Origin: Escherichia coli
GTDB taxonomy: Bacteria > Pseudomonadota > Gammaproteobacteria > Enterobacterales > Enterobacteriaceae
Length of the DNA: 64,000 nucleotides
Assembly (NCBI RefSeq): GCF_045037415.1
Contig: NZ_CP173438.1
Reading direction: 5' to 3' (one strand)
Shown: positions 43,801 through 47,035 of the stretch, piece after piece
How positions within the stretch are numbered: position 1 is the first letter of the stretch
Layout: each line of letters starts with the position of its first letter
Translations under genes and position numbers: made by a program
Notes under the pieces: model-generated
Database searches by the model: none
What the model was told of the DNA's origin: nothing
What the model saw: only the letters and a program-made list of their open reading frames with translations

Positions 43801-43933
43801 TAATGGTCGGCGGTGCAACGTCAGGATATTGCGCGACGGGCAATGTGCGAATAGCCAGAATCCCTGCCAACATAATCAAAATGGCGATAACCCAGGCAAA
43901 GACCGGGCGGCGAACAAAAAAGCGCGAAAACAT
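40826..43933 (-). CDS. RND multidrug efflux transporter (HAE1 family, AcrB/MexB-like)
   Basis: 1035-aa ORF; N-terminus MFSRFFVRRPVFAWVIAILIMLAG and overall motifs closely parallel AcrB but not identical; 12-TM RND architecture. Confidence 0.9.
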   Translation of the reverse strand: MFSRFFVRRPVFAWVIAILIMLAGILAIRTLPVAQYPDVAPPTIKISATYTGASAETLENSVTQVIEQQLTGLDNLLYFSSTSSSDGSVSINVTFEQGTDPDTAQVQVQNKIQQAESRLPSEVQQTGVTVEKSQSNFLLIAAVYDTTDKASSSDIADWLVSNVQDPLARVEGVGSLQVFGAEYAMRIWLDPAKLASYSLMPSDVQSAIEAQNVQVTAGKIGALPSPDTQQLTATVRAQSRLQTVDQFKNIIVKSQSDGAVVRIKDVARVEMGSEDYTAIGKLNGHPSAGVAVMLSPGANALNTATLVKDKIAEFQRNMPQGYDIAYPKDSTEFIKISVEDVIQTLFEAIVLVVCVMYLFLQNLRATLIPALAVPVVLLGTFGVLALFGYSINTLTLFAMVLAIGLLVDDAIVVVENVERIMRDEGLPAREATEKSMGEISGALVAIALVLSAVFLPMAFFGGSTGVIYRQFSITIISAMLLSVVVALTLTPALCGSVLQHVPPHKKGFFGAFNRFYRRTEDKYQRGVIYVLRRAARTMGLYVVLGGGMALMMWKLPGSFLPTEDQGEIMVQYTLPAGATAARTAEVNRQIVDWFLINEKANTDVIFTVDGFSFSGSGQNTGMAFVSLKNWSQRKGAENTAQAIALRATKELGTIRDATVFAMTPPAVDGLGQSNGFTFELLANGGTDRETLLQMRNQLIEKANQSPELHSVRANDLPQMPQLQVDIDSNKAVSLGLSLNDVTDTLSSAWGGTYVNDFIDRGRVKKVYIQGDSEFRSAPSDLGKWFVRGSDNAMTPFSAFATTRWLYGPERLVRYNGSAAYEIQGENATGFSSGDAMTKMEELANSLPAGTTWAWSGLSLQEKLASGQALSLYAVSILVVFLCLAALYESWSVPFSVILVIPLGLLGAALAAWMRDLNNDVYFQVALLTTIGLSSKNAILIVEFAEAAVAEGYSLSRAALRAAQTRLRPIIMTSLAFIAGVMPLAIATGAGANSRIAIGTGIIGGTLTATLLAIFFVPLFFVLVKRLFAGKPRRQE

Positions 43934-45054
43934 CAGGCGTTGCCTCCATTAGCCTGAACTTCAACAGCCTTGACGGTCTGCCCTGAAGTGACTTTGGCAG
44001 AACCTTCAACAATCAGTCGGTCGCCGTTGTGCAGGCCGTTCAGCACCAGCCATTTATCACCATACGTTTCTCCCGTTTCGAGCGTTCGCTGCTCTACTTT
44101 ATTGTCTTTATTCACCACCAGCGCAGTTGCATTGCCTTTAGCATCGCGCGTAACGCCCTGTTGAGGCGCGAGAATAGCGTTTTCCATCACGCCTTCATCG
44201 ACACGAGCGCGAACAAACATTCCCGGTAATAACTGCTGTTGTGGATTGGGGAAAATTGCCCGTAATATCACCGAACCGGTAGACTCATCCACCGCGACTT
44301 CGGTGAGTTCCAGACGCCCTTTTTCGCTGTAGGTTGTGCCATCTTCCAGAATAAGTGAGACGCTCATGGTGTCACTGTTGGTCGCCAGTGACTGTTTACG
44401 CAGACGTAATAAATCGACACTGGAGCGAGTGAGGTCGACATACATTGTATCCAGACCACGAATAGTCGTTAACGCTGTATCCTGCGACGCGGTCACCAGT
44501 GCGCCAGGGGTTACCGACGAAATACCAATACGCCCCGAAATCGGTGCGGTTACCGTGGTCCAGTCAAGATTAATGCGCGCAGTTTCCAGTGCGGCTTTTT
44601 TCGCCTCTACACTGGCTTTATCTTGTGCACAGGTAGACTGAGCATCATCAGCATCCTGTTGTGAAACACCATTCTCTTTCACCAGTCGGGCATAACGCTG
44701 CGCTTTCTGGCAATCGGCTTTTACCAGTGCCTGTGCTTGTTGTAATGCTGCCCGGGCTTCATTCCATGCAGCCTGATAACTGGCCGCATCAATCTGGTAG
44801 AGAGGCTGTCCAGCCTTGACCAGATCACCTTCCTTAAATAAGCGTTTCTGGATAATTCCCCCAACCTGCGGACGTACTTCAGCACTGAGCGCAGCACTGG
44901 TGCGTCCGGTTAATTCACTGACTACCGAAACCGGTTGAGATTTGAGCGTAACAACGCCGACTTCTGTTTCTGACGGGGATGAATTGTTACTTTGCGTATT
45001 ATCACAACCCGATAAGAGCAGCATTGCCACTACAGATGTTGCTATATACTTCAT
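43933..45054 (-). CDS. RND periplasmic adaptor (membrane fusion protein, AcrA/MexA-like lipoprotein)
   Basis: ORF 43933..45087; start placed at MKYIATSVVAMLLLSGC (ATG 45052-45054, preceded by GGAG SD); 1-nt overlap with the RND start. Confidence 0.85.
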   Translation of the reverse strand: MKYIATSVVAMLLLSGCDNTQSNNSSPSETEVGVVTLKSQPVSVVSELTGRTSAALSAEVRPQVGGIIQKRLFKEGDLVKAGQPLYQIDAASYQAAWNEARAALQQAQALVKADCQKAQRYARLVKENGVSQQDADDAQSTCAQDKASVEAKKAALETARINLDWTTVTAPISGRIGISSVTPGALVTASQDTALTTIRGLDTMYVDLTRSSVDLLRLRKQSLATNSDTMSVSLILEDGTTYSEKGRLELTEVAVDESTGSVILRAIFPNPQQQLLPGMFVRARVDEGVMENAILAPQQGVTRDAKGNATALVVNKDNKVEQRTLETGETYGDKWLVLNGLHNGDRLIVEGSAKVTSGQTVKAVEVQANGGNA

Positions 45055-45138
45055 TATTTTCTCCAGGGTGAGAAATACCCTCCTCATTGAAATTAATGAG
45101 GATATGTCAGGGATATTCAGTTATAACGAACCCGCATC

Positions 45139-45154
45139 GCGAAATGAATTTCGC
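45139..45154. promoter_or_regulatory. Candidate repressor operator upstream of the adaptor-RND-OMF-MFS genes
   Basis: Palindrome GCGAAATGAATTTCGC (7+2+7) about 85 bp upstream of the adaptor start codon. Confidence 0.4.
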
Positions 45155-45164
45155 AATGAAATAA

Positions 45165-45182
45165 GGGGGATTAATATCCCCC
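45165..45182 (-). terminator. Hairpin downstream of the TetR-family gene (possible attenuating terminator before the pump genes)
   Basis: GGGGGAT-taat-ATCCCCC inverted repeat about 20 bp after the TetR stop, followed on the minus strand by TTATTT. Confidence 0.5.
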
Positions 45183-45202
45183 GCTATTGGTTAATTCTGT
45201 TC

Positions 45203-45769
45203 TTATTTATTTATCAACATACTAACAATATCCTGATATATTTCCTGCAGATGTTGTGGATCGCTTTTTTGCGGTGTTAAACGACGATAAACCGTACCTT
45301 CCATCATGGTAGCAAACACTTCAACGCAGCAACGAATGTGCTCGTCGCTAAGATGGGGATGCATTCTTTTCATATGTGCACAACCGTTAGCGAACATTCT
45401 GGCGTCAGCTTCTTCAAGCATTGCCATAACCCGCGGGTTGCGTGTGGCTTCTGCAGCCACTTCCAGCATCAGCGCGTCGTCGTCCTCATTTAAGGATTTA
45501 CGCAAGGCAAGGACTTCCGGGAAGTGATCGGTACGCGCGTCAATGTCCATTTGGGCAATACGAAAGTCGATGATACGGCGAACCATCTCTTCAATAATGG
45601 CGTCTTTGTTGGCGAAGTAACGATATATCTGACCCACGCTAAGCTGAGCTTCGCTGGCAATTTGCGACATACTGGCGGCATGAAATCCGCAGCGACGAAA
45701 ACACCGACGGGCGGCGTTAATGATTTCATCCTGACGCTGTTTGTGGCGTATCTCCAGCTTGCTGGTCAT
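45203..45769 (-). CDS. TetR-family transcriptional regulator (probable repressor of the adjacent efflux genes)
   Basis: ORF 45203..45868; start placed at MTSKLEIRHKQRQDEI (ATG 45767-45769, AGGAGA SD) because the longer N-terminus would begin upstream of the predicted promoter; TetR HTH (MSQIASEAQLSVGQIYRYF). Confidence 0.8.
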   Translation of the reverse strand: MTSKLEIRHKQRQDEIINAARRCFRRCGFHAASMSQIASEAQLSVGQIYRYFANKDAIIEEMVRRIIDFRIAQMDIDARTDHFPEVLALRKSLNEDDDALMLEVAAEATRNPRVMAMLEEADARMFANGCAHMKRMHPHLSDEHIRCCVEVFATMMEGTVYRRLTPQKSDPQHLQEIYQDIVSMLINK

Positions 45770-45795
45770 TTCTGTCTCCTGGCCTATCACTTGGT

Positions 45796-45827
45796 GAGAA
45801 TGATCATTCTCATTTTTGCTAATTATA
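45796..45827 (-). promoter_or_regulatory. Candidate promoter -10 with overlapping palindromic operator for the TetR-family gene
   Basis: Minus strand: TATAAT at 45822-45827, then 10 bp, then perfect 16-bp palindrome GAGAATGATCATTCTC (45796-45811), about 27 bp before the start codon. Confidence 0.5.
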
Positions 45828-46246
45828 CGTTTCTCCAAAGTAATGGAAAGTATTTTTATCTTATTCATGATGCATATTCTGATAATGAAGAGATTGTGGA
45901 GATTCTGTGAAGATAGTTGACAATATTAAGTTGGAGTCAATTCATCAGAAAGACAGCGACTTGTTGTCGCCAGTTCTGTTTTCATCATTAAACTTATAGG
46001 AGCTAATACGAATAGTTTCAAAGTCAGATTCTATAAGATATTTCCCCAACCTCCCCCTTGCAGGCGTCAGGAGTAGATAACGCAAAATGCTCTGTACCGC
46101 AGCTTCTCTCCGCTACAGAAAGCGCAACTATAGCCACCCACAGCCAGGTTGATTATAATAACCGTTTATCAGTTCGTACTGTTTACTAAAACGACGAATC
46201 GCCTGATTTTCAGGCACAACAAGCATCAACAATAAGGATTAAAGCT

Positions 46247-47035
46247 ATGGGTTTTCTTTCCGGTAAGCGCATTCTGGTAACCGGTGTTGCCAGCAAACTG
46301 TCCATCGCCTACGGTATCGCTCAGGCGATGCACCGCGAAGGAGCTGAACTGGCATTCACCTACCAGAACGACAAACTGAAAGGCCGCGTAGAAGAATTTG
46401 CCGCTCAATTGGGTTCTGACATCGTTCTGCAGTGCGATGTTGCCGAAGATACCAGCATCGACACCATGTTCGCTGAACTGGGGAAAGTTTGGCCGAAATT
46501 TGACGGTTTCGTACACTCTATTGGTTTTGCACCTGGCGATCAGCTGGATGGTGACTATGTTAACGCCGTTACTCGTGAAGGCTTCAAAATTGCCCACGAC
46601 ATCAGCTCCTACAGCTTCGTTGCAATGGCAAAAGCTTGCCGCTCCATGCTGAATCCGGGTTCTGCCCTGCTGACCCTTTCCTACCTTGGCGCTGAGCGCG
46701 CTATCCCGAATTACAACGTTATGGGTCTGGCAAAAGCGTCTCTGGAAGCGAACGTGCGCTATATGGCGAACGCGATGGGTCCGGAAGGTGTGCGTGTTAA
46801 CGCCATCTCTGCTGGTCCGATCCGTACTCTGGCGGCTTCCGGTATCAAAGACTTCCGCAAAATGCTGGCTCATTGCGAAGCCGTTACCCCGATTCGCCGT
46901 ACCGTTACTATTGAAGATGTGGGTAACTCCGCGGCATTCCTGTGCTCCGATCTCTCTGCCGGTATCTCCGGTGAAGTGGTCCACGTTGACGGCGGTTTCA
47001 GCATCGCTGCAATGAACGAACTCGAACTGAAATAA
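46247..47035 (+). CDS. fabI: Enoyl-ACP reductase (NADH) FabI
   Basis: 262-aa ORF; recognised sequence [40 protein letters not shown]. Confidence 0.95.

Follow-up and report, generated by a model that had tools for sequence, protein, structure and literature searches.

The window analysed here is a stretch of 64,000 nucleotides from Escherichia coli (assembly GCF_045037415.1, contig NZ_CP173438.1) that carries the accessory operon eefRABCD. Of 5426 complete E. coli genomes, 2043 contain the identical region. Annotated copies of the identical locus show the gene order fabI, TetR regulator, RND adaptor, RND permease, outer-membrane factor, MFS pump and sapF, and family-level matches (TetR family, adaptor) concur with the assignment. 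The operon was named and described by Pugh et al. (PMC12817139) and Shen et al. (PMC12482432). The pump has been reported to be cryptic under laboratory conditions, and the first description of eefABC, from K. aerogenes, was of an operon that lacks eefR. A search for EefA homologues, aimed at loci lacking eefR, yielded solely Escherichia and Shigella among the 120 matches listed.

The positions of the genes and regulatory features are collected in Table 1. On the minus strand, eefR ends with a TAA stop codon at 45203-45205. Its start codon is the ATG at 45769 and not the ATG of the longest reading frame at 45868, as indicated by RefSeq and by the cross-genus alignment. The start codon of eefA, at 45054, is kept in all orthologues; a second in-frame ATG upstream of it, at 45087, lies within the 3' arm of hairpin 3 and is specific to Escherichia. 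Taking the longest open reading frames makes both genes too long, with eefR reaching 221 aa (from 45868) and eefA 384 aa (from 45087). Among the matches listed, EefA entries in public databases range from 372 to 423 aa, showing that start-codon annotation varies between databases.

Table 1 Genes, regulatory sites and RNA hairpins around the eefR-eefA spacer.
Feature	Position	Strand	Basis or remark
eefR, TetR-family repressor, 188 aa	45203..45769	-	RefSeq annotation of the identical locus, TetR family matches, orthologue alignment
eefA, periplasmic adaptor, 373 aa, lipoprotein signal MKYIATSVVAMLLLSGC	43933..45054	-	family and RefSeq evidence
eefR promoter, TTTCCA, 16-nt spacer, TATAAT	45822..45849	-	promoter scan, 10/12 matches
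EefR operator, perfect 18-bp palindrome TGAGAATGATCATTCTCA	45795..45812	.	cross-genus conservation and published EMSA
Spacer between eefR and eefA, 148 nt	45055..45202	-	
Hairpin 1 (H1), GGGGGAU-AUUA-AUCCCCC, putative intrinsic terminator stem	45165..45182	-	terminator scan, folding, orthologues
U-run UUAUUUCAUU after H1	45155..45164	-	final bases overlap the 5' arm of H2
Hairpin 2 (H2), CAUUGCGAAA-UUCA-UUUCGCGAUG, 10-bp stem	45135..45158	-	folding, RNAalifold, covariation
Hairpin 3 (H3), UCCUCAUU-AAUUUC-AAUGAGGA, 8-bp stem	45081..45102	-	repeat search, per-species folding
Possible short hairpin 4 (H4), GGGU...ACCC, and single-stranded block, consensus UCGUUCACCCUGGAAAAA	45057..45081	-	
Operator-like 22-mer AATGAGGAGGGTATTTCTCACC	45067..45088	.	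one mismatch to TGAGAANNNNNNTTCTCA; overlaps the H3 3' arm and the eefA leader

With the eefR start placed at 45769, the operator palindrome sits between the -10 box and the ribosome-binding site of eefR. The promoter pattern CTTTCCA-N17-CGTATAAT is maintained across the orthologous loci, and the operator is kept by sequence as TGAGAAYGATCRTTCTCA in 37 sequences from about ten genera, with weight-matrix scores of 30-38 bits. Promoter and operator are preserved together, nucleotide by nucleotide, in Escherichia, Raoultella, Enterobacter, Lelliottia, Leclercia, Kluyvera, Pseudocitrobacter, Cedecea, Phytobacter, Dryocola, Kosakonia and Citrobacter. In the orthologue alignment the helix-turn-helix region of EefR is near-invariant, and the conservation of the operator sequence fits this. 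A 316-bp upstream fragment has been shown to drive GFP expression that is repressed by EefR, and in EMSA EefR binds the promoter palindrome, with binding lost on single-base changes (PMC12482432). Further upstream, in the interval that separates fabI from the eefR promoter, the minus strand carries a hairpin resembling a terminator, UGGCGACAACAAGUCGCUG, with a U-rich tail after it (45954-45972); it is probably the fabI terminator.

The spacer between eefR and eefA is transcribed from the minus strand and reads, in this order, eefR stop, 20 nt, H1, U-run, H2, 32 nt, H3, GGGUAUUUCUCACCCU, GGAG, 7 nt and the AUG of eefA. H1 corresponds to GGGGGATTAATATCCCCC in the DNA, with a 7-bp stem and a 4-nt loop, and begins 20 nt past the eefR stop. 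H2 begins in the tail of the AU-rich U-run. Its core, GCGAAATGAATTTCGC (45139-45154), extends to an inverted repeat with arms of 11 nt (45135-45145 and 45148-45158) that are 91% complementary. H3, which reads CCTCATT-6 nt-AATGAGG in the DNA, lies at a fixed distance of about 30 nt from the eefA AUG. The most sequence-conserved part of the spacer is the block UCGUUCACCCUGGAAAAA, which includes the eefA Shine-Dalgarno sequence GGAG (45061-45064) and may close a short fourth hairpin. RNAalifold predicts H4 as a weak helix with little covariation; in three loci of Kluyvera and one labelled K. aerogenes (L082, see below) it is a distinct stem of 5 bp, GGGUG/CACCC.

An initial annotation of this DNA, made from the sequence alone, had pointed out the three inverted repeats of the spacer, and all of them lie where it placed them. 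The element it described as a 16-bp palindrome is correctly positioned at 45139-45154 and proves to be a 7+2+7 inverted repeat instead of a perfect palindrome. The GAATGA core that it saw in both this repeat and the palindrome at the eefR promoter shrinks to AATGA, as GAATGA occurs in TGAGAATGATCATTCTCA and is absent from GCGAAATGAATTTCGC. Folding of the leader, which it had proposed as a check, revealed structure beyond that of dinucleotide shuffles: the spacer RNA folds with -47.3 kcal/mol (z = -3.36), and none of 200 shuffled sequences folds as well. Each hairpin window is also significant on its own in the E. coli sequence (p 0 to 0.01, 300 shuffles). The E. coli spacer is single-copy and unannotated, and is at least 99% identical in 1865 of 2040 matching genomes. 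No described Rfam family was found over 44800-46300, where only sub-threshold matches appeared (at most 21 bits, E above 1), and the conserved three-hairpin spacer is not mentioned in PMC12817139 or PMC12482432.

A protein site read by an invariant DNA-binding domain keeps its sequence, whereas compensatory change is the signature of selection on RNA pairing. For the comparison between species, 80 loci encoding EefR relatives were fetched, 36 of which have eefA immediately downstream on the same strand. A covariance model located the module in 33 loci plus the window, covering about ten genera. In these 33 orthologous loci the three hairpins hold their position, and their stem sequences vary by genus. 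H1 stems occur as GGGGGAU/AUCCCCC, AGGGAAUU/AAUUCCCU, CGGGAAA/UUUCCCG and GGCGGUG/CACCGCC, and H3 stems as CCCUGCUA/UAGCAGGG, CCCUGUUAA/UUAACAGGG, UCCUCGC/GCGAGGA and others. When each spacer is folded singly, the three hairpins are obtained again (mean whole-spacer z of -3.15), and the hairpin windows are significant (p<=0.05) in 30 (H1), 28 (H2) and 29 (H3) of 32 species.

In the model-guided alignment 86.5% of cells pair, a value that drops to at most 58% once the partners are slid by 1-3 columns. Double (compensatory) changes are seen in 18 of 23 pairs, and for all five measures none of 500 shuffles reached the observed value. H2 is the most stable and best-supported helix, with 96.9% of cells paired and compensatory changes in six of nine pairs; a compensatory G-C to A-U change is present even inside the genus Escherichia, in E. 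albertii. Plain MAFFT alignment followed by RNAalifold recovers H2 only, since variable loops throw H1 and H3 out of register, and register is still lost in part of the model-guided alignment, making its values of about 80% paired for H1 and H3 underestimates. For this reason, per-species folding and arm-swap controls were added. Swapping the 3' arms between species lowered pairing from 97, 88 and 91% to 72, 59 and 59% for H1, H2 and H3, respectively (0/500); for H3, arms pair with their own partner in 90.9% of cells, compared with 59% after the swap. The stems thus covary while the operator keeps its sequence. These comparative data strongly support the view that the three inverted repeats of the spacer act as RNA structures and not as DNA binding sites.

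Published work addresses in part the route by which the pump genes are transcribed. RT-PCR amplifies the eefR-eefA junction from cDNA (PMC12482432), which answers the question of co-transcription raised in the initial annotation. Without EefR the pump genes are derepressed 27-83-fold, eefA 83-fold (PMC12482432). Resistance plasmids of Shen et al. with inserts starting at 45367 behind Ptet, i.e., holding the last 165 nt of eefR and the entire spacer, still confer resistance (PMC12482432). The search for sigma-70-like promoters was negative for the transcribed strand of the E. coli spacer, and none is conserved in the 36 loci, even when the search is relaxed to 8/12 matches. Given this lack of a conserved internal promoter, the pump transcripts appear to arise via read-through, and the covariation of H2 requires that transcription enters from upstream of it. 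A promoter-like site is present in the 3' end of eefR on the plus strand, antisense to the gene (45214-45242; TCAACA, 17-nt spacer, TATATT, TG extension).

Just past the eefR stop codon, H1 offers the GC-rich stem-loop of an intrinsic terminator (7 bp with 5 G-C pairs, 4-nt loop), with an energy of -11.6 kcal/mol and a pair probability of 0.98 in the context of the eefR 3' end and the spacer. The U-run 3' of the stem, UUAUUUCAUU, is interrupted and has 5 T in its first 8 nt, which probably makes for a weak terminator. Across 32 orthologues the U-run has a median of 5/8 T and at least 4/8 in 28 of them, and the H1 stems are short, with a mean of -8.1 kcal/mol. Short stems combined with interrupted U-runs predict partial termination. 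From the side of the transcripts, the junction RT-PCR and the 83-fold rise of eefA without EefR likewise imply that H1 must be leaky. This anatomy leads us to infer that H1 and its U-run form a leaky intrinsic terminator inside the operon. The attenuation of read-through by this hairpin that had been suggested initially is therefore plausible and the preferred interpretation, as hairpin and T-run are conserved in most orthologous loci. The U-run is poor (2-3 T) but the hairpin persists in E. albertii (L005), E. asburiae (L020), Phytobacter (L028) and a MAG (L033) whose spacer is of the same type as that of Phytobacter, so termination may not be the sole or main role of H1. Taken together, a single EefR-controlled promoter with read-through of H1 is supported.

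An internal promoter in the 3' end of eefR or in the spacer could instead drive eefABCD; H2 and H3 would then be part of its 5' UTR, and H1 would be a full terminator isolating eefR. Shen et al. suspect promoter elements upstream of eefA and report that multi-gene plasmids required upstream sequence to give a phenotype, and such a promoter would also agree with the antibiotic phenotype missing from a leaderless NdeI clone and with the first description of K. aerogenes eefABC as an eefR-less operon. Nevertheless, the need for upstream sequence may reflect only the native ribosome-binding site. No sigma-70-like site is conserved in the 36 loci, the covariation of H2 demands transcription from upstream of it, and loss or mutation of EefR derepresses eefA 83-fold though the spacer fragment did not compete for EefR, which points to read-through from the eefR promoter. 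We therefore consider an internal promoter unlikely.

In our reading, H2 and H3 are conserved stem-loops within the leader of eefA. A leader peptide (MRVRYN*) starting from the ATG at 45138 was considered and rejected, as the closing part of the H2 stem contains this ATG, which is not conserved. It has no Shine-Dalgarno spacing and is missing in most Kluyvera loci, Cedecea and Dryocola; the closing pairs of H2, CAUU/GAUG in the window, are CG/CG in most Kluyvera loci. More generally, the orthologues show neither a conserved short ORF nor an alternative terminator/antiterminator pairing of the kind expected for a ribosome-dependent attenuator. No antiterminator competing with H1 is consistent across species, and H1 forms with a mean probability of 0.89. 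The GAGGAGG in the 3' arm of H3 was likewise discarded as a hidden Shine-Dalgarno sequence, because no start codon follows it and the real ribosome-binding site is open. Nor does the leader resemble an RNA thermometer or another hairpin sequestering the Shine-Dalgarno sequence, with the GGAG at 45061-45064 and the AUG lying outside H3 and H4. The mean unpaired probability of the ribosome-binding site is 0.57, compared with 0.54 when the upstream sequence is shuffled, a small effect. As a guess, made with low confidence, H2 and H3 could serve processing, stability or Rho-shielding and protection of the 148-nt untranslated leader.

A more far-reaching reading is that H1-H2-H3, possibly with H4, constitute a dedicated and so far undescribed "eefA leader" that gates the cryptic EefABC/EefD pumps after initiation and independently of EefR. 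Gating would occur by conditional read-through, by processing, or through a small RNA or protein that binds to the conserved UCGUUCACCCUGGA block. If true, this could account for the silence of the pump in the laboratory and for leaderless clones without an antibiotic phenotype, but we regard it as a speculative and rather improbable proposal. A rival explanation is a conditional riboregulator, i.e., an attenuator that responds to a signal, or else the target of a small RNA or RNA-binding protein, that would gate the pump independently of EefR. Conservation of the structure in about ten genera, the conserved single-stranded block beside the ribosome-binding site and the cryptic nature of the pump would suit such an element, which, having no Rfam match, would be an undescribed module. 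Against it, the terminator comes first, no conserved antiterminator pairing was seen to compete with it, a leader peptide is lacking, conservation extends to few unpaired nucleotides, and the ribosome-binding site is not sequestered. We judge this possibility to be doubtful.

Because the shared core appeared so limited, the initial annotation had offered two possibilities, namely that EefR accepts half-sites of divergent sequence or that another regulator is involved. In CmeR-cmeABC of Campylobacter jejuni, a TetR gene is co-oriented with the pump genes and an inverted-repeat operator lies in the spacer over the pump promoter. The eef locus resembles this system in gene order and in having a palindrome between the repressor and adaptor genes; it differs in lacking a conserved promoter or operator in the spacer and in having repeats that behave like stems of RNA. 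None of the three spacer palindromes matches the operator consensus TGAGAAYGATCRTTCTCA. The best score in the spacer belongs to the 22-mer AATGAGGAGGGTATTTCTCACC, which has one mismatch to TGAGAANNNNNNTTCTCA and is identical to the true EefR operator region at 17 of 22 positions. It reaches 10.9 bits, compared with 30-38 for true operators. In E. coli this is beyond chance, as none of 200 shuffles reaches the score; the signal is weaker in E. whittamii, gone in E. albertii and at chance in the other genera. The 22-mer is probably non-functional.

In the EMSA experiments of Shen et al., a "148 bp fragment downstream of eefR" served as nonspecific probe and failed to compete for EefR (PMC12482432). 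The primers of this fragment map to 45055-45075 and 45181-45200, so that the fragment is the spacer (45055-45200) and contains AATGAGGAGGGTATTTCTCACC; the published assay was a competition and not a direct shift of the labelled fragment. Both the EefR operator and the spacer palindromes lie in the same operon, which has the same regulator, yet the operator is the only demonstrated EefR site (PMC12482432). It lies about 600 bp upstream and is conserved in sequence, whereas the spacer palindromes covary and their fragment did not compete. Palindromes acting as DNA operators over a pump promoter in the spacer, bound by EefR through divergent half-sites or by a second regulator, could draw on the co-oriented TetR and pump genes with palindromes in between and on the E. 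coli 22-mer. This arrangement is very unlikely, given that the stems covary instead of holding their sequence, operator-like scores are at chance in every other genus, the fragment does not compete in an assay in which single-base operator changes abolish binding, and there is no conserved promoter for such a site to control. The outcome that would speak against the initial proposal, namely read-through without binding at the palindrome, is thus largely borne out by published data, as far as EefR is concerned. We conclude that the spacer holds no conserved EefR site and that EefR governs the whole operon from the single operator at the eefR promoter, a conclusion that the evidence strongly supports.

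That the inverted repeats arose by chance or are copies of REP/ERIC-type repeats can practically be dismissed: AT-rich intergenic DNA often has short palindromes and an ERIC-like repeat did enter the spacer in one Escherichia lineage, but the z-scores and the cross-genus conservation with covariation contradict this, and in the 2040 of 5426 complete E. coli genomes with a match the spacer occupies one place per genome (median 1, highest 2).

Natural variants of the spacer were encountered in several genomes. In strain razor3, an IS1 element (L084, 1755-2452) has hit the eefR-eefA spacer at the equivalent of about 45146-45147 of the window and splits H2. Insertion sequences are known to change expression upstream of other cryptic pump operons, and by analogy the razor3 IS1 could alter pump expression. 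Escherichia sp. MOD1-EC7003 carries a 124-nt dispersed repeat between the eefR stop and H1 (L003, 3582-3712), a sequence with intergenic copies, about 94% identical, dispersed in 2760 of 5426 E. coli genomes. Judged by the ERIC core sequence, this insertion is ERIC-like. The spacer of Klebsiella sp. BIGb0407 (L040) is merely 42 nt long, and the hairpin set is altered in Kosakonia oryzendophytica, Citrobacter sp. JGM124 and the genome labelled K. aerogenes (L082). The existence of relatives without the full module indicates that it is widespread and not obligatory.

The last of these loci (L082, 3950-4720; GCA_029843285.1) encodes an EefR-like TetR protein (59% identity), has an operator TGAGAACAATCACTCTCA and continues with an eefA-like adaptor gene, in contrast to the literature, in which K. 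aerogenes eefABC is described as lacking eefR. In its spacer of 106 nt, an A-run comes after a hairpin, H2 is missing, and a strong GGGUG/CACCC hairpin precedes the ribosome-binding site. A gene for an EefD-like MFS protein (46-68% identity) directly follows the EefR homologue in Erwinia, Pantoea, Serratia, Brenneria, Lonsdalea, some Kosakonia and Kluyvera georgiana. In these EefR-EefD-type loci (L009-L012, L025, L027 and a subset of L031-L081) the spacer is usually almost nil. The gene arrangement suggests that eefABC, together with its structured leader, was inserted into an older eefR-eefD pair.

Overall, we favour with moderate confidence the explanation that the eefR-eefA interval is a transcribed spacer of eefRABCD with RNA hairpins, that EefR exerts control at the eefR promoter only, and that H1 is leaky and read through into the pump genes. 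H1 and its interrupted U-run would end part of the transcripts after eefR, and the remainder would run into eefABCD. Such partial termination would impose a fixed step-down between repressor and pump messages. The read-through RNA would bear H2, H3 and the short H4 before an open, A-rich ribosome-binding site, and, as a guess, an RNase E cut in the AU-rich U-run might place H2 as a 5'-terminal protective stem. With the operon and the operator already known, the three-hairpin spacer is best classed as a new case, so far unannotated, of a known type of element.

Partial intrinsic terminators within operons have precedents in the rplL-rpoB attenuator, with an RNase III processing hairpin nearby, and in T1 of rpsU-dnaG-rpoD. 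The eef spacer resembles both in having a hairpin and a U-run between cistrons, read-through to distal genes and more stem-loops in the spacer, and differs from them in that the upstream gene is the operon's own repressor, so that the predicted terminator would set the ratio of repressor to pump. Stabilising 5'-terminal or intercistronic stem-loops are known from the ompA 5' UTR, papB-papA processing, puf and the malEFG hairpins. These share with eef the stable hairpins in untranslated operon RNA beside AU-rich single-stranded stretches; for H2 and H3 a stabilising role is a proposal. In the regulator-led pump operons emrRAB, marRAB and vexRAB, the pump is expressed from the regulator's autoregulated promoter. 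As in eef, the regulator is the first cistron, while the regulator families partly differ (MarR-type versus TetR); none of these operons is known to have a conserved three-hairpin spacer.

The operon eefRABCD is a seventh RND efflux operon, is restricted to the E. coli phylogroups most tied to infection, and gives rise to multidrug resistance through eefR mutations. The mechanism favoured here is conventional, and its value lies mainly in correct annotation and in the design of experiments on this operon. Should the spacer be a transcribed, structured RNA that contains a leaky terminator, RNA elements and not a second operator would determine the ratio of repressor to pump. Insertions into the spacer, such as the razor3 IS1 or the ERIC-like repeat of another Escherichia lineage, may then shift pump output. 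Likewise, a pump cloned without its native leader may mislead, which may contribute to the conflicting phenotypes obtained by two laboratories.
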